From Candidatus Levybacteria bacterium RIFCSPHIGHO2_01_FULL_36_15b (GTDB lineage Bacteria > Patescibacteriota > Microgenomatia > Levybacterales > UBA12049), in contig MFNK01000012.1 of the NCBI GenBank assembly GCA_001782045.1, forward strand, positions 21,753-85,752: DNA of 64,000 bases, in the 5' to 3' direction. Under the pieces are notes generated by a model. That model did not search any database. It saw nothing but the letters and a program-made list of their open reading frames with translations, and was not told the origin of the DNA. This document shows positions 10,345 through 64,000 of the stretch, piece after piece. The translations under genes were made by a program, and so were the position numbers. Position 1 is the stretch's first letter; every line of letters begins with the position of its first letter.

Positions 10345-10749
10345 TTGATATATTCCCTGTCTATGGGAAATGAGATACAAAATTATAGATTAAGAGCGGA
10401 TGAGGTTGCTGATTTAGACCCGTATGAAAGAAGAAGCAAGAAAAAGACAGAAATAATAGAAGCTCCGGTAGAAGTAAAAGCTATACCAGAAAGTTCTGAA
10501 TTTAAAGAAAACTATATAATTCCGCCTGATTCCAAGAGCGCAGAGAATTCCCATTCAAAAATAATAAAAGGCTTAAGGTTTTTAGAATATTCAAGCGCAG
10601 CGGCTTTAATTTTAGACTTACAATTGTTTGCTTTGACACGCGGAGAAACACCATTTAGATCCGAACAAGCACTTGGAGGCTTATTATGTTTGGCAATTTT
10701 TATATTAACCAAAGCAGGAGCCGATAAATACGAAGACGATCTCAATTGA
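10345..10749 (+). CDS. Small hypothetical membrane-anchored protein, RADEVADLDPY-motif family, member D
   Basis: YRLRADEVADLDPYERR near the N-terminus; the true start may be the Met at 10363. It has a C-terminal hydrophobic helix. It is divergent from the operon. Confidence 0.5.
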   Translation: MIYSLSMGNEIQNYRLRADEVADLDPYERRSKKKTEIIEAPVEVKAIPESSEFKENYIIPPDSKSAENSHSKIIKGLRFLEYSSAAALILDLQLFALTRGETPFRSEQALGGLLCLAIFILTKAGADKYEDDLN

Positions 10750-11174
10750 CTTTTAATTTAACTTATAGTAATATACTCGGCATGGAAAGTGAATATCGTT
10801 ATAGACAAGATACAGAAGCTTTGTTCGATGATGATGAGGTTTATATTGATGACCTTGAAGCATCATTAAAACTTTATCCTGAAACTGAAAGACAATACAA
10901 ACGTGCCCAAAATATTCGTAGGGCTCTTTTTGGTGTTTCTTTACTTACTTTATTCGGAGGTTTGTATGAAGCCCTTATTGCGCAAGCAAACAAAAATAAC
11001 GGGCTAGATTATCTCGGGCACGAACAAAACAGTTGGCTTGCGGTAATTACTGCAGGAGTCCTAATTGCATCTGGGTTAATCATAGATAATATAGCTGTAA
11101 ATCGCATAAGAACTGAGCAATTTGAATTCAAATTAAATGGCTCAAAGGGAAAGTTTACTAAATTAGTTAAATAA
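10746..11174 (+). CDS. Hypothetical membrane protein (2 TM)
   Basis: Overlaps the stop of member D by 4 bp. Two hydrophobic helices. Confidence 0.4.
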   Translation: MTFNLTYSNILGMESEYRYRQDTEALFDDDEVYIDDLEASLKLYPETERQYKRAQNIRRALFGVSLLTLFGGLYEALIAQANKNNGLDYLGHEQNSWLAVITAGVLIASGLIIDNIAVNRIRTEQFEFKLNGSKGKFTKLVK

Positions 11175-20531: not shown

Positions 20532-21134
20532 TTATCCACTGTTGCCATGCATATCTTTATCTATTAATTTCCTCAAATAATCTGATTTTGAAAGATTGAA
20601 ATGTTTGGCCGCACTATCCAAATGCTGCCTTTCTTTGTCGGAAATGAATAAATTGAACCTGTTTCTAAGTCTAAACTGGCGAATATGACGCAGGAATTTC
20701 TCAATTTCGTCAGGTAAAGTAAACTCCGTATATTTTGCTCCGAAAAAATTCGGCTGATCAATTAAGTTACCATAGTTTCTATCCTTAGATAAAACAAGTA
20801 CTGGTTTCTGAGCAGACAACGCAAAAAACGCTTCAAAACCAAGACGAAAACTTGGATAACTCGCTTCTATTACTAGTCCGTCTGCTCTAAGAATCGCTGC
20901 TCTAACTGCTTTGTCGTGAATATAACGATATTCCTTTTCCGAAACACTAAGGTTTAAAATCTGTTTTAGTTTAGGAGTTTTATCTAAATGAGTTTTAACA
21001 ATAGTGGCCTCTACATTTGCACCTTGATCTTGAATTTCTTTTAAAACTTGTAGATAAGTTTCTTTATACTCCCCCATTCCTGTTTTGGAACAAGTGAAAA
21101 ATATTCTCATACGTATATATGTATATTCTATCAA
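20532..21134 (-). CDS. Nucleoside 2-deoxyribosyltransferase-like domain fused to a C-terminal ribbon-helix-helix (CopG/Arc-type) DNA-binding domain
   Basis: The N-terminal part resembles the NDT Rossmann fold (ADGLVIEASYPSFRLGFEAFFALSAQKPVLVL). The C-terminus SDKERQHLDSAAKHFNLSKSDYLRKLI is RHH-like. The true start may be an internal Met. Confidence 0.45.
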   Translation of the reverse strand: MIEYTYIRMRIFFTCSKTGMGEYKETYLQVLKEIQDQGANVEATIVKTHLDKTPKLKQILNLSVSEKEYRYIHDKAVRAAILRADGLVIEASYPSFRLGFEAFFALSAQKPVLVLSKDRNYGNLIDQPNFFGAKYTEFTLPDEIEKFLRHIRQFRLRNRFNLFISDKERQHLDSAAKHFNLSKSDYLRKLIDKDMHGNSG

Positions 21135-23299: not shown

Positions 23300-24160
23300 A
23301 TGAAATCGATTACCCTCCGTTCTGCCCTCGAGGAGTTCAAAAATTTTCTTAAAAATAATCAGAAAAGCAACTCTACAATAGTTGCATATGGCAAGGATAT
23401 TGACCAGCTTTTAACCTTTTTAGAAGGTTTGGAAAGAGGAGAAATAAGCCATGTGTTAAAAGAAGACTTAGATTCTTTTTTGGCAAAACTTTCCAAAGAA
23501 GGATATACTCCTAAGTCGGTTTCGCGAAAGATTAACTCAATTAGAACTTTTTATAGATTCCTTAAAGTTTCCGAATACATAGAAGAAGACCCTTCCCTTT
23601 TGGTGGTTCATCCTAAATACGAACTAGCACCACCCAGAATTTTAACTCCAACAGAATACAGAGCTTTGCGTGATGCTGCAAGGGGAGACGGCAGAATGTT
23701 TGCAATAATTGAGCTTTTACTTCAAACAGGAATTAGAATCGGAGAACTTGCCAATTTAAGGTTATCTGATGTTGGAAAAGATACTTTGCACATTTTGCCT
23801 TTTGAAAAACATGAAGAAAGAACAATTGCATTAAATAAAAGGGCACAGGAAGCGTTGCAAAGATATATGACAGTTCGGCCAAAGGTAGAAGACGATCATT
23901 TGTTTGTTACAAAAAGCGGAAAACCATTCTTGATTCGAAATATAAGAACTGCAGTAGAAAGGTATTTTAGACTTGCAGAAATTCAAGCTGCCAAAGTAAA
24001 TGATTTAAGGCACACTTTTGTAGCACACCACTTAAAACACGGTGTATCGTTACAGGTGTTGAGTAAAACACTAGGACACAAAAGACTTTCCACAACGGAG
24101 CGATATCTTCAATACGTGCCCGAACGCGGCAAAGACACCTCAGTACTTACGGAACTTTAA
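23300..24160 (+). CDS. Tyrosine site-specific recombinase, XerC/XerD-like
   Basis: N-terminal SAM-like core-binding domain. Catalytic R...HxxR...Y appears as ARGDGRM, LRHTFVAHHL and RYLQY. 286 aa. Confidence 0.75.
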   Translation: MKSITLRSALEEFKNFLKNNQKSNSTIVAYGKDIDQLLTFLEGLERGEISHVLKEDLDSFLAKLSKEGYTPKSVSRKINSIRTFYRFLKVSEYIEEDPSLLVVHPKYELAPPRILTPTEYRALRDAARGDGRMFAIIELLLQTGIRIGELANLRLSDVGKDTLHILPFEKHEERTIALNKRAQEALQRYMTVRPKVEDDHLFVTKSGKPFLIRNIRTAVERYFRLAEIQAAKVNDLRHTFVAHHLKHGVSLQVLSKTLGHKRLSTTERYLQYVPERGKDTSVLTEL

Positions 24161-24560: not shown

Positions 24561-26933
24561 TCAGAGGCGGGCGCGTTGGGCAATAATTGGCTCGAGTTTA
24601 TTAACCGGCACTCCGTATTTTACTCTAGATAATTCCCTAATTAACTCGGCAACTCTTTTGTTTTCCACTTGCTTTTCCTTGGTCATATCTCTTGTTAAAT
24701 CCATAGAAAATGAAGTTACAGGCTCGTTATTTACAATGGTTTTAACATAGGCGTTATAAACATCTACATTAATTAAATCTGCCTCTGTAAAAGTCGGCTG
24801 AAACTCGTGTTGTAGGTAGCTCGCATCCGTTACCCCTACTCTAAACGCTGCCAAAGTACCAACGTTTCCGAAAATTGCATTTTTAACCTCTTCATCCATT
24901 TGTCCTATAAACTGGTTTGCAACAATTAAATTGAGCCTGTATTTTCGGGCTTCTGACAAAATCTGTGCAAAATCAGGTGTTGCAAAGTTTTGAAACTCAT
25001 CTACATATAAATAAAAGTCTCGTCTTGATTCTTCTGGTATATCCTGCCTGCTCATTGCTGCAACCAAAATCTTAGGAACCAAAACTAAACCTAAGAAGCT
25101 AGCGTTTTCTTCTCCTATTTTTCCTTTGGATAAAGAGACGAGAAGAATTTTACCCTCATCCATTGCCTTTCTAAAATCAAATGCGCTCTTGCTTTGCCCA
25201 ATTATGTTTCTCATCATCTTATTTGTGACAAACCGGCCAAATTTGGAAACAATATAATCTAAGGTTTCTGATTTATGGAAATCGGAAGTCTGTGCAATTT
25301 GGTCTGTCCAATAACGTCTAATAATTGGATCCTGGACTTTAGGAAGCAGCTCCTGAACAAAATTTGAATCAGTAAGAGCACGTACAACTTCTATAAAAGT
25401 GCTTCCCGGCTCGCTCATTACGGTTAACATTGCGTTTCTTATAGCATGCTCAAAACGGGGGCCAATAATTCCGGTTTTATTGGGGTCGTAAAGCTTGTAC
25501 ATGAGCCCTACAATTGAGCTTACAATATAGTGTTTTTCCTGCTCGGTTTGGGCCTCTAACATGTTTAGTCCAAGAGGCATTTCCGTGTCTGATGGATCAA
25601 ATAAAATTACATCTTCTGCCCGCTCCGGCGGAATTAAAGGTAAAAGTTTATCTATTGTGTCGTGGGGATCGATAAAGCAAACCCCTTCCCCATTTCTTAT
25701 GTCCTGCAAAATCATGTCTTTAAGAAATTCGGATTTTCCCGTTCCAGTTTTTCCAATTACATACATATGTCTTCGTCTGTCATCTTTTTGAATATATACA
25801 GGTTTTGCCATACCCCTGTATGTACTCATTCCAAGATAAAGTCCTGTACTTGGAATTTGAACGGGTGCGGGCGCTTTTTTGGCATTAAGCCAGAAAATAT
25901 GAGGCGTTTGTATGGTTTTATTTGGAAAATGATAAACTCCGGCAAGCTCTTCGCTTGTTAAAACCGAAAAGTTTCCGGTTGCCGGGAAGTAGCGATAAAT
26001 AAAATCTGTTATAAAATTTCCTTTTAAAAACTGCTTCTGTTTTGTAAATTCATTAAATGACGCAAACTGATCGAATGCATTTTCCAAATTGTTAAGATGG
26101 GCCTCTGCTGCTTCCTTAGTAGAGGATGAAACAACCAATCTTACTACTGTATAAAAGCCGGGTTTTCCTATTTTTTGCTCAACAGCTTCAAGTTCTTTAG
26201 GGTCTGAAGAATACTTTGCAGTTTCCGGGTTTGATTCTCTTTTTTTAGTATCTGCGATGTGTTTTCTACCCATCTTAGACCATTTTGAATCTGCACCAGA
26301 AATTAAAATTTGAATTGCTGCGCCCTCTCCTTCCCCCATTTTGGCAAGGACAGAAGTTATTGAGGATATTGGATCAACTGCAAATTCTTTATAAACTTTT
26401 AAGGATTTGTAATTACTGTCTTTAAGTTTCAAGGTTTTGAATGCAACGCTACCATTTTCAGAAAATATATTATATTCATTGCCTAAAATGTAGCCTTCCT
26501 TTGAGTATCTCGAATTACCTTCTTCTACGACTCGTATTTCGGCATCCGGGTAAGAAGCGTTAATCTGCTTTTCAACCATGTCTTTATATTTATTAGGTGT
26601 GTATATGAAAAACCGAATGTCGCCAGGCATTCCTACTATTTCAAAAGATATATGAGGTCTGTATTTTAAAAACTGCAGGCGACCGCTTGATTTTATCCCT
26701 GCAAAAGCGCTAAAAAGCTGTTCTGCGGCGTCAATTTTTATTTCGTTGTCTCTTGGAAGCGCAATTTGCAAAAGAGTCGAGTCTAAGGAATGCTTTTCGC
26801 GTTCTCTATTTCTGTACCAAACCATCCAAACATATCCAAGCCCAACCACTACAGCAGCCATTAAGATAAGAATTCCTACTGTAACAAATAGCGATATTAG
26901 TAACTGAGTTAGAGCTGTTAAAGAATTTATCAT
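24561..26933 (-). CDS. VirB4/TrbE/CagE-family type IV secretion ATPase with N-terminal TM segment
   Basis: Walker A VIGKTGTGKSEFLKDM and Walker B LYVDEFQNFAT. 790 aa with an N-terminal hydrophobic helix. Confidence 0.8.
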   Translation of the reverse strand: MINSLTALTQLLISLFVTVGILILMAAVVVGLGYVWMVWYRNREREKHSLDSTLLQIALPRDNEIKIDAAEQLFSAFAGIKSSGRLQFLKYRPHISFEIVGMPGDIRFFIYTPNKYKDMVEKQINASYPDAEIRVVEEGNSRYSKEGYILGNEYNIFSENGSVAFKTLKLKDSNYKSLKVYKEFAVDPISSITSVLAKMGEGEGAAIQILISGADSKWSKMGRKHIADTKKRESNPETAKYSSDPKELEAVEQKIGKPGFYTVVRLVVSSSTKEAAEAHLNNLENAFDQFASFNEFTKQKQFLKGNFITDFIYRYFPATGNFSVLTSEELAGVYHFPNKTIQTPHIFWLNAKKAPAPVQIPSTGLYLGMSTYRGMAKPVYIQKDDRRRHMYVIGKTGTGKSEFLKDMILQDIRNGEGVCFIDPHDTIDKLLPLIPPERAEDVILFDPSDTEMPLGLNMLEAQTEQEKHYIVSSIVGLMYKLYDPNKTGIIGPRFEHAIRNAMLTVMSEPGSTFIEVVRALTDSNFVQELLPKVQDPIIRRYWTDQIAQTSDFHKSETLDYIVSKFGRFVTNKMMRNIIGQSKSAFDFRKAMDEGKILLVSLSKGKIGEENASFLGLVLVPKILVAAMSRQDIPEESRRDFYLYVDEFQNFATPDFAQILSEARKYRLNLIVANQFIGQMDEEVKNAIFGNVGTLAAFRVGVTDASYLQHEFQPTFTEADLINVDVYNAYVKTIVNNEPVTSFSMDLTRDMTKEKQVENKRVAELIRELSRVKYGVPVNKLEPIIAQRARL

Positions 26934-48412: not shown

Positions 48413-49105
48413 TTAATCCCTTGCTAAAGTAAGGCCGAACACGACTTTTGCGCCGGCTCGCTTGAGCACATTTGCAGCTTCTTTTAGGGTAGAACCGGTT
48501 GTAACAACATCATCCACAAGAAATATATTTCTGGCTTCCAGTTTCAAGCTTCTATCATCTAACTCGAATGCTTCTTTAATATTTTCTTTCCTCTCTTCTT
48601 TTGTAAGTTTAAACTGGCTTTTTGTATCTTTTAATCTTACAAGCAAGTTTTGAACGGGAATATTTAATTTTTTTGAAAGAGCAATAGATAAAATTTCTGC
48701 CTGATTATATCCTCTTTTACGAAGTTTGGAACCGTATAAAGGAACAGGAGCCATAAGCCATTCGCCATTAGCTATAAGCTTCATGAACTGCTCATTTTGA
48801 ATAATACTTTCTACAAAAAGTTCTGACAAAAAAGTTTTTAAATCTGAAAGATATGGCTTATATTTAAAATTAAAAATTAGCTTTCTTGCGATTTTGTTAT
48901 AAGAAATTGCGCTAAAACAGCCATCTATTGAATACCTACTTTTGCATTTGGGATGAGTAAGACTATTGTAAGTTGGTTTGTCGCAAACCAAACAAAGATT
49001 CTTTACATCAAACGAGATAAATGGAAGACAGTTTGCACAAACATAATCCCCTGATTTTGCACAATTAACACATTTTTTTGGGAAAATTAAATCAATTAAG
49101 TTCAT
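48413..49105 (-). CDS. comF: ComF family protein (phosphoribosyltransferase domain, N-terminal zinc finger)
   Basis: CVNCAKSGDYVCANC zinc finger and the PRTase motif LVDDVVTTGSTL. Confidence 0.75.
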   Translation of the reverse strand: MNLIDLIFPKKCVNCAKSGDYVCANCLPFISFDVKNLCLVCDKPTYNSLTHPKCKSRYSIDGCFSAISYNKIARKLIFNFKYKPYLSDLKTFLSELFVESIIQNEQFMKLIANGEWLMAPVPLYGSKLRKRGYNQAEILSIALSKKLNIPVQNLLVRLKDTKSQFKLTKEERKENIKEAFELDDRSLKLEARNIFLVDDVVTTGSTLKEAANVLKRAGAKVVFGLTLARD

Positions 49106-52015: not shown

Positions 52016-53422
52016 ATGGAAAAAGAAGGGAGACGAAGCCACAAAAAACTCAGAGGAATTTCTGCCACAATAGCTTCTCTTCTTGTTGCCGCCTGTGCGC
52101 CTTCTGGCGGAAGTATTCCACGGCCATCAGGCGAAGTTTTGGGAACCTCAGATCAAAATACAATTGAAATGGGATGGCCAATAGACAGAACAAAACCCCA
52201 AAGGCTAAATGGAGCCGCTCATAATTATAATAAAGCTCCACAGATAGATATGACAGCTTTTCCGGACATAATAAGAAACGAGCTGGATCTAAGCAATCTA
52301 AATCCTGTAAGTTGTATAGATAATCCAAATGCAACAATGGATTTTGACACCATTGCATCAAGAAGTGGTACGGTAGTTTCAGTTGGAGGAGATTTTAGTA
52401 TTATTAAAATAAAAGACGATCTAGGCTTTTTTGAACAATATACTCACTTAGACGGTATAGGTGTTGAAAAGAATAAACACGTAGATCAAGGCGACGTAAT
52501 CGCACGAAAACTCAAATGTACTCCAAATGACACAGGGCTTCATATGGACTTTGCGGTTTCAGATGCAACCGGAACGGGAGTAGATATGGAAAGAGTTGTA
52601 TTTGTTGACGCTTTAGGAGGAAGGACAAGAAATACTAAAGCTCCAACAAATTATGATGGAACAATGATTCTGCCCGACAATACAATTGTTACGGCGGACA
52701 AAAGGGTTTGTCAGACAAGTGCAGATTGCAAAGGAATAATAAATATCATTCCTCCTTTAAGTGGTACTGCAATAGAAACCCAAGCGCCGGAAACGACCGA
52801 AGAATTGATGGACATATATCTCAAGCCTGAAAATTTTAGTGATATTAATCAGCAATTTATGGTTAGAGGTTTTAGATTTTGGCTGGAAACATATACGGCT
52901 AAAAAGGGGGAAACAGAGTTAGCAGAGCCTGACCCAGACTATGATTATAAAGGTAGTTACGTTCAGATTGAAACTAACGCAGATGAATGGATCAAAGATG
53001 CATCTAGAGTTTTATCGGCACCTCTTCTGCAACCAGACGGTTGGGGAATCACAACTGCAGAAGATATAGATACTGTCTTCAAAGCTCACTGTACATGGAG
53101 TGGGCAAGAGGAAAAAGAAACATGGGTAGAGATGAAGGGATTCCAACCTCGAACCTGGGCTATTACTGATTTTACAGCTGCTCAAATAGAAAATGGTTTG
53201 GAAAGACTACAATCTTTCCACTTTACCGCCATATATAGATTTAGGGAAAACGATGAAGAGTGGTCTGAGTGGAAAGAATACGAAGGCGAATATAGGCCTT
53301 ACCAATGGAGAATAAAAAACGGAGAGTTAATCATGGAAACATCAGATAACGACAGCCAAATGGGACTATCCCACCCACAAAACGAATATAATGACCCCGC
53401 CAAAGAAGAACCATTCTGCTAA
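52016..53422 (+). CDS. Lipoprotein with degenerate LytM/peptidase-M23-like domain
   Basis: Lipobox LLVAAC. YTHLDGIGVEKNKHVDQGDVIARK...TGLHMDFAV matches the M23 architecture, but HLH is replaced by HMD. Confidence 0.45.
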   Translation: MEKEGRRSHKKLRGISATIASLLVAACAPSGGSIPRPSGEVLGTSDQNTIEMGWPIDRTKPQRLNGAAHNYNKAPQIDMTAFPDIIRNELDLSNLNPVSCIDNPNATMDFDTIASRSGTVVSVGGDFSIIKIKDDLGFFEQYTHLDGIGVEKNKHVDQGDVIARKLKCTPNDTGLHMDFAVSDATGTGVDMERVVFVDALGGRTRNTKAPTNYDGTMILPDNTIVTADKRVCQTSADCKGIINIIPPLSGTAIETQAPETTEELMDIYLKPENFSDINQQFMVRGFRFWLETYTAKKGETELAEPDPDYDYKGSYVQIETNADEWIKDASRVLSAPLLQPDGWGITTAEDIDTVFKAHCTWSGQEEKETWVEMKGFQPRTWAITDFTAAQIENGLERLQSFHFTAIYRFRENDEEWSEWKEYEGEYRPYQWRIKNGELIMETSDNDSQMGLSHPQNEYNDPAKEEPFC

Positions 53423-53481
53423 ACCCTGTAAAATAATTTGCTCACAAATTGCCTTAAGCATTTAACAGGGTAAACTTGACA
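53423..53481 (+). promoter_or_regulatory. Palindromic operator-like element (ACCCTGTAAAAT-N25-ATTTAACAGGGT) followed by TTGACA, upstream of the VirB6-like gene
   Basis: Arms at 53423-53434 and 53460-53471, with TTGACA at 53476-53481. Same architecture and orientation (relative to the downstream operon) as 27441-27501. Confidence 0.5.
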
Positions 53482-53512
53482 GGAGACTGAATTTATCTCA
53501 AACTGATACTAG

Positions 53513-55303
53513 ATGAGAAAAATCCTGTCCGCCTTATTGCTTGTCTTCTCTTTATTTTTGCTTTTATCGGTTAAGCCCTCTTTTGCCCAGTATCAGCAAA
53601 ATTATACAGCTCCAAATGTAAACTCCGATGTTGTCCAAAACCAGCATACTTGGGTGCAAAGCATAATGCTTGAATCTATGTCTGCACTTTCCTGCCAATT
53701 AACCGGGGTGGATCCATTAAGTGCAAATAATAAATGCTTGGGATTCGATACCAAAACAGGAAAATTAGGATACGTTGATGGAAACGGCGGGCTTGTTGGT
53801 TTTGCAAGCAGCGCTATTGGACAACTGTATATCATGCCTGTTCATACTGCAGATTATGTAAGACATTTGGCAGGAAACTTCGGTTTTGCAAAAAATAGTT
53901 ATGCTGCTAATGCAGATTTGGGATTCGATAGTTTAACACCATTGCAACCTTTATGGTCAACGTTTAGAAATTTTGTTTACGCCGCGTTTATTGTTATTTT
54001 CCTTATTCTTGGCGTTGCGATAATGTTTAGGGTAAAAATTGACCCTAGAACTGTAATGACTCTGCAAAATCAAATACCAAGAATCATTATTGGTATAATT
54101 TTAGTTACCTTCTCTCTTGCAATAGCAGGACTTCTAATAGATTTAATGTATGTATCTTGTTATCTTGCAGTTAATATATTTATGCAAGCCGAGCCGGGGC
54201 TTTTCAAAGAAACCGCTGGAACAATTGTCGGTTCAACCAATCCGTTCGATGGGTTATATAATACTTTAAGCTCAACGTATGCCTTACCAGATATCACACA
54301 AAATGCAGCGGGAACCATAGGAGGACATCTGGGAGATTTGTTTGATAATGTAATGGGTAGAGGCATCGTGGGCTTGCTCGGTGGGATATTTGGAATAATA
54401 ATTGGTGGAACAGTAGGAAATTTGCAAGTTTTTGGTACAGGGGGCGCCGGAATTGGCGCTCTTATTGGTGGGGCTGCAGGATCTATATTTGGAGCAGCAT
54501 TCGCGCCCCAAGTAATGGGAACGGTAATTTCTATGATAGCTTTTCTTGTAATTGCAGTTGCAGTCATTGCTTCTTTGTTTAGGCTCTGGTTTCAACTTAT
54601 ATTAGCCTACATAGGAATATTAATAGATATCGTCTTTGCTCCATTTTGGATTGTCGCGGGACTTATTCCGGGAAGTAAAATTAACTTTAGTTCGTGGATA
54701 AGAAATTTAGCAGCAAACCTTGCAGCATTTCCGGCTGTACTTATTTTATTTATGCTGGCAAAAATATTTATTTATGAATTCGGCAAGGGTGACTCAGCTA
54801 CATATTTTACGCCCCCTCTAATTGGAAATCCTGCAAATTCAATCCAGTTGGGATCAATTATTGCCTTGGGTCTTATTCTTATTTCACCTTCTGTTGTTAA
54901 AATGATGAAAACAGTTTTCGGCGCACCGCAAGCTGGTTTTGGACCAGTGTTTGAAGGTTTAACTACTGGATTTGGAATTATCGCAACGCCTACCAGAAAA
55001 CTTACGGGGTCGTTATTTGGCAAAAATCCATATACGGGTGCCCCTAGGGCTGGAAGTCGAATTCTGGGTACGTTTATGCGAACTAAAGTTGGAGGCGCAG
55101 CGGGAGCATGGGCACAATTACTTACTGGTGGAGGAAGACAAGGTGCAGGACATTTAACGCCACAGAGACTTAGAAATTGGAGGACTGCAAGAAGAAACAG
55201 GGGTGGAGCCGCAAATCAACAACCACCTGCTCCTCAAAATAATATACCTGATAATACCGCGACCATCCAGGGTCAGGACGACACCGAGGGAACAACTAGC
55301 TAG
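53513..55303 (+). CDS. VirB6/TrbL-like polytopic membrane protein with Gly-rich helices
   Basis: Signal peptide, then at least seven hydrophobic helices rich in G/A/I (GIVGLLGGIFGIIIGGTVG...), and a hydrophilic Q/P-rich tail. Confidence 0.55.
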   Translation: MRKILSALLLVFSLFLLLSVKPSFAQYQQNYTAPNVNSDVVQNQHTWVQSIMLESMSALSCQLTGVDPLSANNKCLGFDTKTGKLGYVDGNGGLVGFASSAIGQLYIMPVHTADYVRHLAGNFGFAKNSYAANADLGFDSLTPLQPLWSTFRNFVYAAFIVIFLILGVAIMFRVKIDPRTVMTLQNQIPRIIIGIILVTFSLAIAGLLIDLMYVSCYLAVNIFMQAEPGLFKETAGTIVGSTNPFDGLYNTLSSTYALPDITQNAAGTIGGHLGDLFDNVMGRGIVGLLGGIFGIIIGGTVGNLQVFGTGGAGIGALIGGAAGSIFGAAFAPQVMGTVISMIAFLVIAVAVIASLFRLWFQLILAYIGILIDIVFAPFWIVAGLIPGSKINFSSWIRNLAANLAAFPAVLILFMLAKIFIYEFGKGDSATYFTPPLIGNPANSIQLGSIIALGLILISPSVVKMMKTVFGAPQAGFGPVFEGLTTGFGIIATPTRKLTGSLFGKNPYTGAPRAGSRILGTFMRTKVGGAAGAWAQLLTGGGRQGAGHLTPQRLRNWRTARRNRGGAANQQPPAPQNNIPDNTATIQGQDDTEGTTS

Positions 55304-58300
55304 GCTTTAATAGTATATTGCATTGTTCTTGCTAAAATTTCTAATAAACTAGACAAAGCAGGTCCACCCATTTCTACACCTAGATCCTCAACCAACAATT
55401 TCCAGGGTTTACTATCGGAATTGTTTCTCATTAGTTTAATAAGGTCTTCATCAAAAAACCTCATAGGTTTGCCATCTGGTCCTAGTCTTACCCTTGTTCG
55501 TCCTGGATGATCTGGATCTGGTTCTAATTCCTCCATATGATTAAGTAGCGAGAAAAATGCCTCTGTTCTTACATATCCCCATTTTGCACCTGGTCCTCCA
55601 AAATGCCTGTGATGTCGCAGTTCTGCAGCAACATTTAAAGCTATTCCAAACTTAACCATGTCCATTCTTCCTGAAACTATTTCCCCTGAATCAATTTGCA
55701 CTGCGCCGTCCAAGTATTTTTTTTGCTTGTCTGTTAGGTTTCTAAAATCCATTTCTTCGCCGTTGTGTTCTTTTGCCCATTTTTCCTTAACCAGATTTAT
55801 AACTTCCGGCCCGTAAGAAGCTTCTGCCAAAGTCACGTCTTCGTATACCGGAACTGCATCATTTGCAAGATTATTAGTAGCAACAACGTCTAATCTTCTC
55901 ACCTTGCTTGAGAACTTCATTCCTCCGTTTGTATTACCAAAATATCTTGCAGGCTTAATAAAACCATCATTAAAGTTCTCTTCAACGTATCCTAAATCAA
56001 CTAATGCACCTTGAATTGCGTCATAAGTTACCATTTTGTTTATATCCAATCTCTCTCCTCCTGTTTGTGCATGGAAAATCTGGAACCCTCTCATCTTTAC
56101 ATTTCCTGCGATATCTCTTTCGGCATTTTGGTTAAATTTAAGCTTCTCAATCCATTCTTTTATCTCATCTTTTCGCCTGTCTTCTAGTAATTTTGACTTG
56201 TCTTCATTTGATAAGCTTTTTATTTCCTCTTGTTTTATTCTGCCGCTTCCAAGATATCTATCAAGAAGCCACTCATGGGGAATGTTTTCAACTCCTCTTA
56301 TTTCATTGAAAATTTCCATCGGACTCATTTTCCCCTCTGTTTTTAATGCCGACCACATATCAGGTATTATATTTCTGTAAATTCCAATTGCTTCTCTAAC
56401 TCCAGTTGGCCCTGCTCTAACAGCTTCAGATTGCCTTATTGAATAATCCTCTAGGTTTCCTTTTGTCGATGCGTCATACCCTCTTCTATTTACGTCGTTT
56501 CTTGCTCCTCCTCCATATGCCCTTTGAAAATGCTCACCTATGTTTTCTGCGAAGGATATATTAACCCGTTCAGCGTAACGTTCGATATCAAGCAGTTTTC
56601 TGTTAGCAGCTGAGGTAGCTTGCTCTTCGGTTCTGCCCAGCGACAATTGTGCTCGTACAATACTTTCCCATTCTTTTCTTTTCTCGCTTTTAGCAGTTTC
56701 TGTTCTTGCTATTCCGGGATTTAATCCGTATTTTTCAGCTGCTTTTAGCCGAACCAGTTCCTTAGCAAGTTCAAACATACTCTGCGGGGCATTAGCATAA
56801 TTGTAAAAATTCATTACTTTTGCAAAATTTTTAACATTAAATTTATCTCCTTCAAAAAGACTATATTTAATTCCCGAATAAGGGTCTGTACAGTAAAACT
56901 CATCTGAGTTAGCTGAATCGAAATACCCTTCAAAGCTATCGATATCTTCCCAGTCTTTCTTTTTTTGAATAATTCTTATAGCATCTCTAAAATCATCTTT
57001 TGTAAACATAAATCCGCTTTGCTCCTTAGGTAAATCTTTTAAGCGAGATTGAAATGTTTCTTGATTAATCCTGCCTTCCCTAAGATCTGCTTCAAGCTGT
57101 GCTTTTCCTTTTTGAATTTCACTCCCTCTGACAATTTCAGTCAATTTTTCCCAGTCCGAAAGATTGTAATAAAATTCATTAGCAAACATTACAGCTCTTC
57201 CCTCGTTTATTTCTCCACTGCCAAACTCACCCGACATTTTTAATATATCTCTTAAGTTGGTACTTCTTGTAATATCGCTTCTTGAATGAATCTGGCCTAC
57301 AACTTCCGGTAGTTTTTTATCCTCATTCATGGTCTGTCTATAAACAAGGTCCGAATTTCTAACAACTCCAAATAGCCAAGTATCATATAACAGAGCGTTT
57401 GCTAAATCTTCCATTATTTCCCCTGTTTTTTCGTCCCTAAAATATCTCTGCTTATTTATAAGTGTCATTTCTATTAGCGAGACATCCCTAAAGCCGGTGT
57501 TAATATGAATTGAGCCTAGAGGACTTATTTGGTCATTCGGATTGCTAAGATGTAATAACACTGATTGTTCTCTTCCCCATTTAAGCAAGTTCTCCGGATG
57601 AAATTTTCCTTCTCTGTCGATAAGAGGAAAAACCCCATCCACCCCCCAATACTCAGCATTTTGAGAAGTGACTAAATATCTAGATAGCTCCTGAACTGAA
57701 TTTACGGGGTTGTATTGGTCGGGATTTTTTGGAGTCTGGTATTCTAGGAAACGTTTAGTTACTGAATTTACTATTTCTGCCAATCTTTCTTTTTTTTGTT
57801 CGGCTGTTAAATTTGTGGCATCCCTTATTGATTCTATGTTTAGTCTAGCTCTTCTTATTTCGTCCATATTTCCACCTGAGGAAGCAGCCACCATGTTTAT
57901 CAGCGTTCCATTTGCATAGAGAAACTCATCAAAAACGGCGTTAGAAGCATCATCGGAGGCGCCAAAGGTTTCTACTATGTTTATGAGTCTCCCTCTTTCA
58001 ATTTCCATATCAGCTTCGAAGCCGGATACCATTTCTTCTATCATTTCCTCTCTTGTTCGTGCCGCTGTTTCTTTATCCGCCAGTTCTTCCATGAGGCCTC
58101 TCATTTGGCTTGCAATAATTTTATCTTTATCCTTGAAAACGCTTTCCATATCTTGAAGTATTAAAATAAGTTGTGCTTTTTGTTCAGATTTATCAAGCTT
58201 GAGGACATTTACTAGTTTTTCTCGATACTTTGCTTTTTCTTCTCTAGATAATTCTTTTACTGTATTTCGAATGTCTTTAATTATTTCTGGCAGCTCCATT

Positions 58301-59046
58301 TTTCTATAATCTTTGGCTTCTACTTTCATACTCTCATCCACTTTAAGAGCTTTTGTTCTTTGGCTTGCAACAGCTCTTACTAACTTTTGAAGCTCAAGCC
58401 TTGCAATGTGAGGAGGTAAAGATTTAATTTCCGTAAATCTTTTTCTATACTTACTCATTAATTCGGCGGAAAATTTATTACCTACTTGTCTTTCGGTTTC
58501 GTTTAAGTAAAGGTCAACCAAATTATCTGTATCTTCCTTAAGAATAGACTCTAAATCTTTTTCTCGCAGAGATTCGACTGCCTTAGTGAGCATTTTTGCA
58601 AAACCTGCTGGATCATCTTGCAAAGCTACGTAAAGCTTGTCTCTTAGTGCCTGCTGTTCAGGGGTTAAATTTTTTCCTTCAAAAAGGCTTACAAATTCTT
58701 TTGCCTGTTCCGGACTTAGGTGGCCTTCTTTAATGTAAAATGCGATAGTCCCATCCGGCTTAACCACTGTATATTCAGGTTTTTCGCTTGGGACTTCCTT
58801 TGGTTCTGTATCAGAGGCTCCCGCAACGGGAAGTATGCCTCTTTCAATAAGCATTTCCTGCGTTCTTCGCTCGCTCACAGAAAGTGTTCTTCCTCTATTA
58901 ACTTTTTCCCAAGCTGACCTAACTTCGGTAGGTTCTTGTATGGTTGACTCTAACTCGCTTTGTCCTGGCTCCGGCATAAATTGCTCTCCTACCTCAAGTT
59001 TAGAATTTACAGATTTTATTGTCAATTGAACTTCTTTTTCTTTCAT
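55300..59046 (-). CDS. Giant hypothetical protein (1248 aa), no TM or signal peptide, coiled-coil-rich N-terminal third
   Basis: Single uninterrupted ORF, convergent with the VirB6-like gene with stops overlapping. No recognisable catalytic motif. Confidence 0.5.
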   Translation of the reverse strand: MKEKEVQLTIKSVNSKLEVGEQFMPEPGQSELESTIQEPTEVRSAWEKVNRGRTLSVSERRTQEMLIERGILPVAGASDTEPKEVPSEKPEYTVVKPDGTIAFYIKEGHLSPEQAKEFVSLFEGKNLTPEQQALRDKLYVALQDDPAGFAKMLTKAVESLREKDLESILKEDTDNLVDLYLNETERQVGNKFSAELMSKYRKRFTEIKSLPPHIARLELQKLVRAVASQRTKALKVDESMKVEAKDYRKMELPEIIKDIRNTVKELSREEKAKYREKLVNVLKLDKSEQKAQLILILQDMESVFKDKDKIIASQMRGLMEELADKETAARTREEMIEEMVSGFEADMEIERGRLINIVETFGASDDASNAVFDEFLYANGTLINMVAASSGGNMDEIRRARLNIESIRDATNLTAEQKKERLAEIVNSVTKRFLEYQTPKNPDQYNPVNSVQELSRYLVTSQNAEYWGVDGVFPLIDREGKFHPENLLKWGREQSVLLHLSNPNDQISPLGSIHINTGFRDVSLIEMTLINKQRYFRDEKTGEIMEDLANALLYDTWLFGVVRNSDLVYRQTMNEDKKLPEVVGQIHSRSDITRSTNLRDILKMSGEFGSGEINEGRAVMFANEFYYNLSDWEKLTEIVRGSEIQKGKAQLEADLREGRINQETFQSRLKDLPKEQSGFMFTKDDFRDAIRIIQKKKDWEDIDSFEGYFDSANSDEFYCTDPYSGIKYSLFEGDKFNVKNFAKVMNFYNYANAPQSMFELAKELVRLKAAEKYGLNPGIARTETAKSEKRKEWESIVRAQLSLGRTEEQATSAANRKLLDIERYAERVNISFAENIGEHFQRAYGGGARNDVNRRGYDASTKGNLEDYSIRQSEAVRAGPTGVREAIGIYRNIIPDMWSALKTEGKMSPMEIFNEIRGVENIPHEWLLDRYLGSGRIKQEEIKSLSNEDKSKLLEDRRKDEIKEWIEKLKFNQNAERDIAGNVKMRGFQIFHAQTGGERLDINKMVTYDAIQGALVDLGYVEENFNDGFIKPARYFGNTNGGMKFSSKVRRLDVVATNNLANDAVPVYEDVTLAEASYGPEVINLVKEKWAKEHNGEEMDFRNLTDKQKKYLDGAVQIDSGEIVSGRMDMVKFGIALNVAAELRHHRHFGGPGAKWGYVRTEAFFSLLNHMEELEPDPDHPGRTRVRLGPDGKPMRFFDEDLIKLMRNNSDSKPWKLLVEDLGVEMGGPALSSLLEILARTMQYTIKA

Positions 59047-59101
59047 ACCCCGTAGTTTATACGCAGCAAAGTCAAAGTACTTGATACTAACCTTACAAAT
59101 T

Positions 59102-59121
59102 CTTTACAGTTCGCTGTAAAG
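59102..59121. promoter_or_regulatory. Perfect inverted repeat CTTTACAG-TTCG-CTGTAAAG in the divergent intergenic region
   Basis: Read directly. It lies between the start of the giant gene and the four-helix-bundle gene. Confidence 0.35.
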
Positions 59122-59148
59122 AGATTTATGATATATGAGAGATGATTT

Positions 59149-59529
59149 ATGAATAAAATCAAAAGCTTCACAGATTTAAATGTTTGGAATGAAGGTCATA
59201 AGCTAGCAGTATTAATTTATTCGATAACTAAAACATTTCCGAAGGAAGAAACCTATTCATTAGTAGACCAAATGCGAAGAGCTGCGGCTTCTGTAACCGC
59301 AAATATCGCAGAGGGGTTTGGAAGACAAACCTATAAAGAAAAACTTCAATTTTATTACATGGCGCAAGGCTCTCTAACTGAGTTGAAAAATTTTATTCTT
59401 ATTGCAAAAGACGTGGGTTATTTGAAGGAAAAAGATTTCAAATCTTTAGTAGAGCGATCTAACTTAACTCATAAATTACTTCAAGGATTAATAACAAAAA
59501 CAAAAACATTCTTAAATCCTAAATCATAA
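59149..59529 (+). CDS. Four-helix-bundle protein (23S rRNA intervening-sequence protein family / Avd-like fold)
   Basis: The N-terminus FTDLNVWNEGHKLAVLIYSITKTFPKEE...QMRRAAASVTANIAEG is typical of this family. Confidence 0.7.
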   Translation: MNKIKSFTDLNVWNEGHKLAVLIYSITKTFPKEETYSLVDQMRRAAASVTANIAEGFGRQTYKEKLQFYYMAQGSLTELKNFILIAKDVGYLKEKDFKSLVERSNLTHKLLQGLITKTKTFLNPKS

Positions 59530-59547
59530 TTCTTAAATCTTTTAAGT

Positions 59548-60855
59548 TTATGGAATAAACTTAAAGCCTCGGCCTTTTATTGTTTGTATGTGCGTTGGGG
59601 AATTTGGATTTTCTTCTATTTTTTTTCTTAGCCTAAAAATAAGCTGGTCAAGTGCTTGATCGGTTACTCCTAAAACTGTTTTTTGCTCTCCCCAAACTGC
59701 ATTTATTATTTCCTCTTTTTCTACAATTCTTTCTTTATTCTCAAGCAAAAATTTAAGTAGCCTATACTCAAGAGCGGTTAGTTTTTCGGATAATACATTT
59801 AAATCTAGTGCGTCTTCTTTTAAATCAGAAGCTTTTTCTTTTGCGTAGTCACCAAAAAGCGGGATCGAAAGTAATTTGTCTTTTATCAAACCTACTTTTT
59901 CTAAAAAGGGGGAGATGTTAAAATTTCCTCCTGCCTGCGCAGGCAGGTTTACAATCAGTTTTTGTTCTTGTGGTGTTAAAAAGTTCCAAATTGCAAAAAG
60001 AGCGCTTCGAACGGGTTTTTGTGTAAGAAAATATTTTCTTAAAAGCTGTTTATTGTCAAGCAACTCTGTGCCTGCAAGAAAGCTTTCTGCACATAGTCGA
60101 ACAAGGTTGGTGTGTCCTCCAGTGAGCTCGAAAATCTGTGAAAGTAATGTTTTATCTAATTTTTTATTCGTAATTTTTTCTAAATATGAAACCCTAAAAT
60201 CTAAACCTGCTTCATCCGAAATAGGTAAATAAACTACTTTTCCTGCAACCGTTTCGTAAAAATCTGCAAAAAAAGTTGGGTCAAAAGTATCCTCAAGCGG
60301 CCTATTTAAAGAAAAAACGACTGAAAATTTATACTTTGCCCTGTTTCTTAAAATCTTTAGGTTTGCAAAAAATTCACTTGTTATAGTTGGGGCATATTCT
60401 TCAAACCTATCGAAAAGCAAAACAACATTTAAGTCTTTTTCCAAAGACAAATAATCTATTGCTTTTTTTAATCCTGAAAATATAACCATTTCGTCTTTAA
60501 GGCTTATACTTTCTTTAAAAATCTTATTTACAACTTCGTATCTTTTAGAAAATCCTCTGTCTTTTAAAGAATCTATAACTCCAATAAAGATGAACTTGAA
60601 TACGTCTGAAAGGGGCTTTTTTCTTATTTCTGAAAAGTTTAAATATACAAAGTGGTAATTTTTTTGAGAATCTCCTAGGTGTTTTTCGCGGACTTTTTTG
60701 TTATAAGCTAAGAGTCCCAAAAAATTAGATCTTCCAACTCCGGGAATTGAAACGAGTTGCACCGAATTGCCTTCTTTAACAAAAGACAAAACTTTTTCTA
60801 TTTCTTCAAATCTTGTATTTTCCGGATAAAGATATTCAAAATGCTTATCTTCCAT
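59548..60855 (-). CDS. Putative transcriptional regulator: N-terminal P-loop ATPase-like domain and C-terminal OmpR/PhoB-type winged-helix DNA-binding domain
   Basis: The C-terminus LEYRLLKFLLENKERIVEKEEIINAVWGE...TIKGRGFKF is trans_reg_C-like. The N-terminal GVGRSNF is loop-like. Confidence 0.5.
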   Translation of the reverse strand: MEDKHFEYLYPENTRFEEIEKVLSFVKEGNSVQLVSIPGVGRSNFLGLLAYNKKVREKHLGDSQKNYHFVYLNFSEIRKKPLSDVFKFIFIGVIDSLKDRGFSKRYEVVNKIFKESISLKDEMVIFSGLKKAIDYLSLEKDLNVVLLFDRFEEYAPTITSEFFANLKILRNRAKYKFSVVFSLNRPLEDTFDPTFFADFYETVAGKVVYLPISDEAGLDFRVSYLEKITNKKLDKTLLSQIFELTGGHTNLVRLCAESFLAGTELLDNKQLLRKYFLTQKPVRSALFAIWNFLTPQEQKLIVNLPAQAGGNFNISPFLEKVGLIKDKLLSIPLFGDYAKEKASDLKEDALDLNVLSEKLTALEYRLLKFLLENKERIVEKEEIINAVWGEQKTVLGVTDQALDQLIFRLRKKIEENPNSPTHIQTIKGRGFKFIP

Positions 60856-60921
60856 ATTTTAATTATAACTTATGGCTTACTAAACTTGCATTTTTATTTA
60901 ATATTGAGATACGATAAGCTT

Positions 60922-62286
60922 GTGATTAAAAAACTGCTCACCATTTCAATAGCATGTTTGTTTTTTTCGTTTTTATCTCTAGCATACCCCAGCGCGTCTT
61001 TGGCAGATAACTGTGTTATTACCTCAGAAACTTCCACCCCTTATGTAACAGGGGCAACTCAAGCAACAATTAAAATAAATCCGAGTGGCCTATCTCCAAA
61101 TACAACTTTTTGGGTGGGTTTAAGAAATACAAGCGATAGTTGTTACCGATATAGAGATCCCCATCCCTCTTGTTTTACCGATTGGGAGCAATTTCCCTCA
61201 GGCACTTCGACAAGCGAGATTCCTTTAAACTTCGAATTTCCAAAGGCTTTGCAAACTGGACGCGTAGGAATTATCGTCAACCGAGAACAAAATTATGATA
61301 ATATATCTACCAGACAATGTTCTACGTCAATTGATGTTATTCCTTCTAATCCGGGTTCAAGCAATAAATGCCTACTCAGGGTCTGGAGCGATAATAACAA
61401 CAGATTTACTACGGCTGATAAGATATATGTAACTTTTGCTGAGGGATCACTTAAAGAGGCTCGAGACTCATTTGCACTCAAGATATTTAGAAGGGATGCA
61501 ACTGGTGATTATAAAATCATTGATAATAGCGATCAGGACTTAACACTGTCTCAGCTTTCAGAACTAACTGCTCCAACTACAAATACTCCACCTCTGCATT
61601 ATGGGACATCTAATCAGACTACTTTTGATGAGGGAGAATATCAAATAAAATTGTTCTCTAAAGATTGGTTTAATGAAAAACAATGGTGCCCTACTGCTAC
61701 ATTTCCAATAAGCCAAGAAGGCACAGAAACTCCTGGGCCGATAACCGGAGGCGGGTCTTGTAAATTCTGTCCTCCAACAAGCAGATATGAACCGGATACT
61801 AATCCGTTGGTGTGCAAAGACACATCAGGGAATACCTTGCCGGACAATCAACTGTTGTCAGCAAATTGCGAGGAGGATAAAGCTTGTAGTCCAATTTTTG
61901 GCTGCGTTGATAAAATTTCAGGAAGCCCATTTGGAGATGAAACAATTGATACGGGAAGGGCTCCGCCTTGCTCCGTGCCATTAGATGAAAATGGCTTTTG
62001 TCCTGAAATATTTACTGGTTTAGGAATTAGTTTTCCCACTACAATTGGGGGATTCACTTCTGCCCTACTTGGTGTGATGCTTAGCCTAATAGGAGGTATT
62101 GCTTTAATACTAATAATAATATCCGGATATAGGATAATGGCTTCTCAGGGAAATCCTGAAGCCTTGCAAGCAGCCCGGGAACAGTTAACCGCTGCAATTG
62201 TCGGACTTTTGTTTGTAATATTTTCGCTTGTAGTTCTTGAGGTAATTGGAGTTGATATATTAAAGTTGCCTGGATTAACAAGATAA
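60922..62286 (+). CDS. Secreted Cys-rich protein with C-terminal TrbC/VirB2-like T4SS pilin module (start taken at GTG 60922)
   Basis: Signal peptide KKLLTISIACLFFSFLSLAYPSASLA, multiple Cys pairs, and a C-terminus ...LIGGIALILIIISGYRIMASQGNPEALQAAREQLTAAIVGLLFVIFSLVV matching the downstream pilin paralogs. Confidence 0.5.
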   Translation: MIKKLLTISIACLFFSFLSLAYPSASLADNCVITSETSTPYVTGATQATIKINPSGLSPNTTFWVGLRNTSDSCYRYRDPHPSCFTDWEQFPSGTSTSEIPLNFEFPKALQTGRVGIIVNREQNYDNISTRQCSTSIDVIPSNPGSSNKCLLRVWSDNNNRFTTADKIYVTFAEGSLKEARDSFALKIFRRDATGDYKIIDNSDQDLTLSQLSELTAPTTNTPPLHYGTSNQTTFDEGEYQIKLFSKDWFNEKQWCPTATFPISQEGTETPGPITGGGSCKFCPPTSRYEPDTNPLVCKDTSGNTLPDNQLLSANCEEDKACSPIFGCVDKISGSPFGDETIDTGRAPPCSVPLDENGFCPEIFTGLGISFPTTIGGFTSALLGVMLSLIGGIALILIIISGYRIMASQGNPEALQAAREQLTAAIVGLLFVIFSLVVLEVIGVDILKLPGLTR

Positions 62287-62289
62287 TTA

Positions 62290-62616
62290 ATGATAGAAAT
62301 CGCATTAAATTTAGACGGCGAAACTATTCAAGCTCCACCCGGCGTACCAACCGGTGGGCTTAATAAACTGGTTGAGATAGTACGACTTTCGATTGAACTT
62401 GCATTTATATTTGCAATACTACTCTGTCTTTATGTGCTTATATTTTCCGGTTTCCAATGGGTGTTTTCCGGTGGCGATAAACAAAAGTTGCAAACTGCAA
62501 GACAGCGACTTACTTATGCAGTTGTTGGCTTAAGTCTTGTATTCTTGTCCTTGCTTATAATGAGCGTTCTTTCAAAAGTTGCAGGCGTTAACCTTTTGGA
62601 TATTCCAACGCCTTGA
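62290..62616 (+). CDS. T4SS pilin-like protein (two TM helices flanking an SGGDK...AR loop), paralog 2
   Basis: VFSGGDKQKLQTARQRLTYAVVGLSLVFLSLLIM. Confidence 0.55.
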   Translation: MIEIALNLDGETIQAPPGVPTGGLNKLVEIVRLSIELAFIFAILLCLYVLIFSGFQWVFSGGDKQKLQTARQRLTYAVVGLSLVFLSLLIMSVLSKVAGVNLLDIPTP

Positions 62617-62651
62617 CATAGATTTTCCTGATGTTAATATTGATTTGAACG

Positions 62652-63176
62652 GTGAAAATAATCTTAACGCTACTATTTTCTGCTACTTTCTTCTTTTTTA
62701 CGGGTAAAGCATTTGCGGATAGCATTTGCCCAAGAACTGCAAGTTTTGGTGGCCTTTGTCTTGGATCGGATGATTTAGGAAGAGTAGTTGGAACGGGAAC
62801 TGAGTATCTTTTTGTTATAGCGATTATTATCGCACTTTTGTATCTGGTCTGGGGAGGTTTAAAATGGCTTACGTCCGGCGGAGATAAAACCGCACTTCAG
62901 GCAGCTCGCGAGCACATAGTTGCTGCGGTAGTTGGATTAATAATAGTTTTCTTATCATATTTCATACTCGCATTTTTAATAAAGTTCTTTATTCCGGATT
63001 TTGATATTACCGAATTTGATTTGCCAACTGTTGGAACATCCGGTGGTTCGGGCAGCAGCGGTTCAGAATGCAGCGCAATAACTGATGGGTACTGTGTTAG
63101 AGCTCAAGCTTGTCCAGATACAAAAAGGCATGGCCAAAAGGATTGTGGTATAGGACAAGTTTGCTGCACATATTAA
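62652..63176 (+). CDS. T4SS pilin-like protein, paralog 3 (signal peptide, Cys-rich C-terminal extension)
   Basis: LVWGGLKWLTSGGDKTALQAAREHIVAAVVGLIIVFLSYFIL. Confidence 0.55.
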   Translation: MKIILTLLFSATFFFFTGKAFADSICPRTASFGGLCLGSDDLGRVVGTGTEYLFVIAIIIALLYLVWGGLKWLTSGGDKTALQAAREHIVAAVVGLIIVFLSYFILAFLIKFFIPDFDITEFDLPTVGTSGGSGSSGSECSAITDGYCVRAQACPDTKRHGQKDCGIGQVCCTY

Positions 63177-63231
63177 GATTATTAAGAAGGGACTTGACAA
63201 ACTGTAAAAAGATGTCTAGCATAAATTATAG

Positions 63232-63636
63232 ATGAGAAAAATAGTTGCTTTTTCTTCAACCCTTGGAGCTTATCTTGTAAGTGCTAGTTCTGCTTTTGCC
63301 CAGCTAGATACGACAGACGTAACGCTTTGCCCAAAAGAAGGATCAAACTTTATAAATCTTTGTGGCTTACAAATTAGCGATTTAATCGGCCCTGCAATAA
63401 ACTTCCTATTCATTATTGCTGTAATTATTACTCTCTTTTATCTTGTCTGGGGAGGCTTAAAATGGCTTACATCAGGCGGGGACAAAACTGCTGTTCAGGC
63501 AGCTCGCGAGCACATTGTAGCAGCAGTAGTTGGGTTAGTAATAATTTTCTTATCATATTTCATACTTAACTTTATACTGGTATTCTTCCTTGGACAAGAA
63601 TTTGGTATTTCAAGCTTCTCCATTCCTCATCTTTAA
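63232..63636 (+). CDS. T4SS pilin-like protein, paralog 4
   Basis: LVWGGLKWLTSGGDKTAVQAAREHIVAAVVGLVIIFLSYFIL, near-identical in the core to paralog 3. Confidence 0.55.
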   Translation: MRKIVAFSSTLGAYLVSASSAFAQLDTTDVTLCPKEGSNFINLCGLQISDLIGPAINFLFIIAVIITLFYLVWGGLKWLTSGGDKTAVQAAREHIVAAVVGLVIIFLSYFILNFILVFFLGQEFGISSFSIPHL

Positions 63637-63680
63637 ATCTACTTGAACTAAAACAATTAGTCTGATACTCTGAATTTAAT

Positions 63681-64000
63681 ATGTTTTCAATGCCGTTAAA
63701 TGGCGACGAATGGGAATGCGCTGTCGAAGGCGTAGCTACTCTTTCGTGTATTCCCGATATTTTAAAAGTGGTAATCTTTTGGGCTTTAGTTTTTGCAGGA
63801 ACCGTTGCCTTGTTTTTAATGATTTTTGCAGGAATTAGGTTTATAAATTCCGGTGGAGACCCAAAAGCAGCAGACACTGCACGAAAAACTTTTACCTACA
63901 CAATTCTTGGGCTTTTAGTAATTATTTTATCTTTCTTTATTCTAAATTTAATTTCAACAATCACAAACGTTCCTTGCATTCTCAAATTTGGAGAGCTGGG
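63681..64000 (+). CDS. T4SS pilin-like protein, paralog 5 (partial; runs off the window end)
   Basis: Hand translation MFSMPLNGDEWECAVEGVATLSCIPDILKVVIFWALVFAGTVALFLMIFAGIRFINSGGDPKAADTARKTFTYTILGLLVIILSFFILN... Confidence 0.5.
   Translation, partial: MFSMPLNGDEWECAVEGVATLSCIPDILKVVIFWALVFAGTVALFLMIFAGIRFINSGGDPKAADTARKTFTYTILGLLVIILSFFILNLISTITNVPCILKFGEL

Follow-up and report, generated by a model that had tools for sequence, protein, structure and literature searches.

Positions 52016–64000 of a 64,000-nt stretch of DNA (the window) very likely represent the front half of a chromosomal, origin-proximal type IV secretion system (T4SS)/pilus gene cluster from an ultrasmall Levybacteria bacterium (Microgenomatia, Patescibacteria/CPR), and the system is most probably a monoderm, Gram-positive-conjugation-like T4SS that additionally acquired VirB2-like pilins. 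The segment encodes an M23-like lipoprotein, a VirB6-like polytopic protein, a large soluble protein, a four-helix-bundle protein, a P-loop::OmpR-type winged-helix regulator and five tandem VirB2-like pilins, each found where an earlier note, made from the letters alone, had placed it. Proteins of the window match those of a Candidatus Levybacteria MAG exactly. Patescibacteria T4SSs with an origin-adjacent pilin array are a kind already known from descriptions in 2023 and 2025, and the present locus is a further member. On the full contig (L001), genes for PrgI/VirB3-like, TraC/TrsD-like and VirB4 proteins start ∼130 nt beyond the window end and are followed by dnaN-dnaA, which bears out the earlier reading of the region as a T4SS-like machine. 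Pfam scans of the full contig gave 34.5 bits for the PrgI gene product and 97.2 bits on P-loop_TraG for the locus VirB4. The TraC-like assignment rests on a precomputed PF26593 match, which a separate Pfam scan did not reproduce, and no NTF2/VirB8-like protein was identified at the present locus.

Comparison of synteny, which the earlier note had proposed, shows that the order VirB6-like protein, large protein, regulator, big pilin and three to four small pilins is kept in eight of nine loci, judged as far as each contig reaches. PrgI, TraC-like and VirB4 genes come next wherever the contig extends (L001, L010, L012 and L016; PrgI also in L007). The VirB6-like gene lies at one end of the T4SS cluster in the same proportion of loci (8/9); in L015 it is seen only in a convergent pair with the large-protein gene, apart from the pilin and VirB4 genes. 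The flanks, SmpB ... VIT1-NUDIX-[T4SS]-dnaN-dnaA, are common to relatives.

The VirB6/TrbL-like protein (53513..55303, + strand; 596 aa), assigned by family and structure matches, has a signal peptide, at least seven hydrophobic/TM helices, a Gly-rich helical stretch and a basic, disordered C-terminal tail. Its 626 homologues, where named, are all from Patescibacteria or Levybacteria, and it diverges across the loci down to ∼36% identity. The window protein itself has no direct Pfam TrbL match, even at E ≤ 1, but three of 36 family members do, including the 43%-identical P0095, which passes the TrbL/VirB6 gathering cut-off (32.0 bits versus 25.9). The best five Foldseek PDB matches of its AF2 model (pLDDT 68.5) are all TrwI/VirB6 of R388, though weak (E 0.18–0.6, TMt 0.34–0.39). 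The protein matches no transporter family.

Upstream lies the gene for an M23/LytM-like lipoprotein (52016..53422, +; lipobox LVAAC). As the earlier note had anticipated, its product matches Pfam Peptidase_M23 at 30.7 bits, above the gathering cut-off (28.7). The M23/LytM-like domain spans residues 113–183 and is followed by a functionally unassigned C-terminal domain. Neither HxxxD nor HxH, the canonical metal and catalytic motifs, is present; HMD occurs at residue 176. In L007 the corresponding position is taken by a CHAP lipoprotein (CHAP 34.7 bits) sharing the C-terminal domain (BLASTP 3e-10), while L008, L010 and L012 contain no such lipoprotein gene; overall, a hydrolase gene was found in two of six loci with a readable flank on that side. 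The lipoprotein is a candidate cell-wall-opening, VirB1-analogous factor.

At the other end of the segment, five pilin genes follow one another on the + strand: pil1 (60922..62286; class-1 "big" pilin), pil2 (62290..62616; class-2 small VirB2-like pilin, 108 aa), pil3 (62652..63176; class-3a, 174 aa), pil4 (63232..63636; class-3b, 134 aa, a class-3a paralogue) and pil5 (63681..64000; class-4). The last is cut by the window end; its full length is 113 aa, its gene end would fall at 64022, and its L001 coordinates are 10450–10791. Scores on the VirB2-type T4SS_pilin model PF18895 are 28.3, 29.6, 32.5 and 36.4 bits for pil1 to pil4, above the gathering cut-off of 26.6, and 26.1 bits for pil5, which falls short by 0.5 bit. 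The earlier assignment to the TrbC/VirB2 family is upheld by PF18895 but not by the TrbC/VirB2 model PF04956, on which the pilins lie far under the cut-off (∼14 bits versus 27.9). All five pilins share a two-helix module, helix / S(G/Q)G(D/N)...AR / helix; the stricter motif first described, SGGD(K/P)xxxQxAR, is exact in pil2–pil4, whereas pil1 reads SQGNP and the Q is missing from pil5.

The pilins differ in what surrounds this module. In pil1, a signal peptide precedes a ∼350-aa ectodomain rich in Cys (14 of the 15 Cys in the protein come after the signal peptide), and the VirB2-like module forms the C-terminus, with the PF18895 match at residues 429–497 of the 509-aa ORF. Between genomes only the module is conserved (57–69% identity over ∼100 aa), and the ectodomain shows no similarity to its L007 or L012 counterparts; judged from these sequence comparisons, it is hypervariable. 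pil2 has positional orthologues in L007, L010 and L012 (40–46% identical). pil3, orthologous to L12_3 and L7_3, combines a signal peptide and an N-terminal Cys pair with a C-terminal Gly/Ser linker and a 6-Cys mini-domain, and the last pilin of each array is a pil5 orthologue. No signal peptide was found in pil2 or pil5. The cores of pil3 and pil4 are nearly identical, as previously noted, with 33/35 residues identical in the module center, 50/62 across the two-helix module and 84% DNA identity over 154 nt. Their identity within the genome exceeds that between genomes. The pil3/pil4 pair is a lineage-specific duplication, but the array as a whole is ancient and consists of four ordered, orthologous classes conserved across Levybacteria, and we reject the proposal of recent pilin amplification for surface variation. 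In L016, a TraX gene (F-pilin acetylase family) lies inside the pilin array, in keeping with pilin maturation.

Every locus with both the large gene and the pilins has, between them, the gene for the P-loop::winged-helix regulator (59548..60855, −), which is absent from L015. In the window and in L016 it runs in the direction of the large gene, in the other loci in that of the pilins. The protein, 59–65% identical across loci, contains an N-terminal P-loop NTPase domain (Walker A GVGRSN, Walker B LLFDRFEE), in which the Walker A Lys is replaced by Arg in most family members, and a C-terminal OmpR/PhoB-type winged helix (Trans_reg_C, 74.6 bits). PDB matches to PhoB, OmpR and RegX3 span residues 350–433 only, and there is no receiver domain. 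Pattern scanning and alignment revealed three 11-bp-phased hexamers, GTAAAG / GTAAGG / ATCAAG (59080..59107, −), in the divergent control region, and these are kept in the window, L007, L010, L012, L015 and L016. They form a candidate operator that the locus's own OmpR/PhoB-type regulator may bind.

This control region immediately precedes the promoter of the large gene. The 1248-aa "giant" ORF previously noted is present (55300–59046, −), but its codons 1–23 correspond to an in-frame sigma-70 promoter and Shine-Dalgarno site, so the protein is probably 1225 aa, starting at the ATG at 58977 (55300..58977, −). The promoter, TTGACA-17-TAAACT (58997..59025, −; 10/12 in the promoter scan), precedes an AGGAG Shine-Dalgarno site and then this ATG, and gene callers translate it in frame as codons 8–17. 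TTGACA is nucleotide-invariant in all six aligned loci, and in L016 the equivalent promoter, TTGACG-17-TATGAT, sits outside the large ORF. The 1248-aa ORF contains no TM segment and one Cys. Its N-terminal third is E/K-rich and variable, and the conserved globular region comprises the C-terminal 845 aa. The family comprises 192 clusters and is fast-evolving, and the confident AF2 model has no relative in the PDB. A soluble protein of 900–1900 aa at this position is a fixed part of the Levybacteria layout. Gene position is the only tie of the large protein to secretion.

It is conceivable, though on balance unlikely, that the large protein has nothing to do with the T4SS and that the place of its gene beside the VirB6-like gene, like the placement of the four-helix-bundle gene, reflects a frozen accident in the genome order of Levybacteria. 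Consistent with such an accident, the large gene has a consensus promoter of its own and is encoded on the opposite strand, its product has no T4SS-family match, and the positional counterparts in L008 and L010 (983 and 904 aa) are not detectably homologous to it. However, the large gene is convergent (tail-to-tail) with the VirB6-like gene in 9/9 loci, including L015 where the pair stands apart from the pilin and VirB4 genes, the pair persists across the full range of VirB6-like divergence, and the phased hexamers adjoin the promoter of the large gene. The four-helix-bundle gene (59149..59529, +) is clearly optional. Its product belongs to the 23S rRNA-IVS family (23S_rRNA_IVP; PF05635 128 bits, TIGR02436 118.5 bits) and is distantly Avd-like. 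The gene is absent from L012–L014 and L016; L008 carries extra copies between pilin genes, and L010 between the PrgI and TraC-like genes. The four-helix-bundle protein is probably an optional passenger and not a part of the secretion machine.

The ATPase at 24.5 kb, which the earlier note took for the VirB4 of the system, is instead a VirD4/TraD-type coupling protein (T4CP; 24561..26933, −). It matches TrwB_AAD_bind (26.4 bits versus 20.5), TraG-D_C (26.1 versus 22) and TIGR03743 TraD (E 4.5e-12), and has an N-terminal TM segment, Walker A GKTGTGKS and Walker B YVDEFQ. A VirB4 identity was rejected, as TIGR00929 gave only 16.8 bits versus 643, phmmer detected no similarity to the locus VirB4, and the true VirB4 is encoded just outside the window. 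The T4CP gene lies 27 kb from the T4SS cluster. No relaxase was detected among the scanned proteins, and the combination of no relaxase and no adjacent T4CP could suit a system that imports rather than exports, a ComB- or Ced-like DNA/nutrient-uptake device whose pilus and channel would bring host material into a cell unable to make nucleotides, amino acids or lipids. Most biosynthesis is indeed missing in Patescibacteria, a ComFC-like gene (DZR_2 + Pribosyltran; 48413–49105) lies 3 kb upstream, and T4SS loci of class ABY1 co-localize with comF, recG and radA. We nonetheless regard import as highly improbable: competence of Southlakia epibionticum needs ComEC and type IV pili, and comEC loss has no effect on its viability whereas its T4SS is essential, and nothing in the sequence indicates a direction of transport. 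It is likewise highly improbable that the locus serves an integrative conjugative element as its mating-pair-formation module, transferring DNA via the VirD4-like protein and a relaxosome: the window does contain the T4CP, a NikA-like relaxosome-accessory domain protein (20532–21134) and a tyrosine recombinase (23300–24160), their genes all flanked by tRNA genes, and the T4SS is homologous to monoderm conjugation machines (PMC12102498), but in addition to the missing relaxase and the distant T4CP, GC content is not atypical, the 2025 survey reports only 109 relaxases, in 103 genomes, the T4CP is dispensable in S. epibionticum, and the housekeeping context (SmpB ... VIT1-NUDIX; dnaN-dnaA) is kept in relatives whose T4SS proteins are only 36–79% identical, which argues against recent mobility.

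The closest known systems are S. epibionticum SEML1_0006-0019 (Wang et al. 2023, PMC10633639) and those of the Patescibacteria survey (Quinonero-Coronel et al. 2025, PMC12102498). Shared with these are the monoderm-type core (VirB4, TrsD/TraC-like, PrgI/VirB3-like and VirB6-like proteins), a tandem PF18895 pilin array, peptidoglycan hydrolases encoded in the cluster, the lack of an adjacent relaxase or coupling protein, and a chromosomal position beside dnaA/dnaN. The survey assigns Patescibacteria T4SSs to their own VirB4 clade, related to MPF-FATA, with VirB2-like arrays of 2–11 genes, especially in Microgenomatia; they lie near dnaA, mostly without relaxases, and their T4CP is mostly encoded elsewhere. 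The VirB6-like protein is shorter here (596 aa versus 1088 aa), and its position under the TrbL threshold fits the survey's description of VirB6 as "scarce" in Microgenomatia. The Levybacteria layout differs in the ∼350-aa ectodomain of the first pilin and in having the regulator and the 900–1900-aa protein as fixed parts; neither of the latter was found in the S. epibionticum cluster listing or in the survey, in the portions available.

As in the MPF-FATA systems (pCF10 Prg/Pcf, pIP501 Tra, pGO1 Trs), PrgI-, TrsD- and VirB4-type proteins are accompanied by a polytopic VirB6/PrgH analogue and a modular cell-wall hydrolase (cf. PrgK or TraG with LytM, SLT and CHAP domains), with no outer-membrane core. 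In contrast, MPF-FATA systems lack VirB2-type pilins and use surface adhesins; they reside on plasmids or ICEs, together with a relaxase and an adjacent coupling protein. The pilins resemble Gram-negative VirB2/TrbC/TraA pilins in being small two-helix hairpins with a short basic loop and often a signal peptide, but they match PF18895 rather than PF04956, signal peptides are missing from two of the five, and a large ectodomain is joined to one class, the C-terminal 6-Cys mini-domain to another. Like the virB2 paralogues of Bartonella and Anaplasma they are tandem, divergent copies, though here ordered orthologous classes rather than variable ones. Likewise, the regulator shares its winged helix with PhoB/OmpR activators, and its candidate operator, with hexamers every 11 bp, resembles pho boxes, but the P-loop NTPase domain replaces the receiver domain.

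Starting from the observed gene content, family matches, synteny and conserved promoter and repeats, we infer that a pilus-forming T4SS would work as follows. The VirB4 ATPase, its TrsD/TraC-like partner and the PrgI/VirB3-like protein, encoded 0.1–4 kb past the window end, would form with the 596-aa VirB6-like protein a membrane translocon and pilus-assembly platform, and the peptidoglycan-hydrolase-type lipoprotein (M23-like here, CHAP in the closest relative) may open the wall locally. The five pilins of four conserved classes would be inserted in the membrane as two-helix hairpins, then extracted and polymerized into a heteromeric pilus or tube contacting a host bacterium, with host recognition perhaps set by the hypervariable Cys-rich ectodomain of the class-1 pilin. 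The P-loop::winged-helix regulator would control the divergent promoters via the 11-bp-phased hexamers, and the large soluble protein may act as a cytoplasmic partner or cargo specific to the system. Epibiotic growth of S. epibionticum requires the T4SS genes and the pilin array (PMC10633639; PMC12857230), and by analogy the Levybacteria system probably supports epibiotic life, not conjugation. The large, fast-evolving protein of unfamiliar fold, always encoded beside the channel gene, is the chief new lead.

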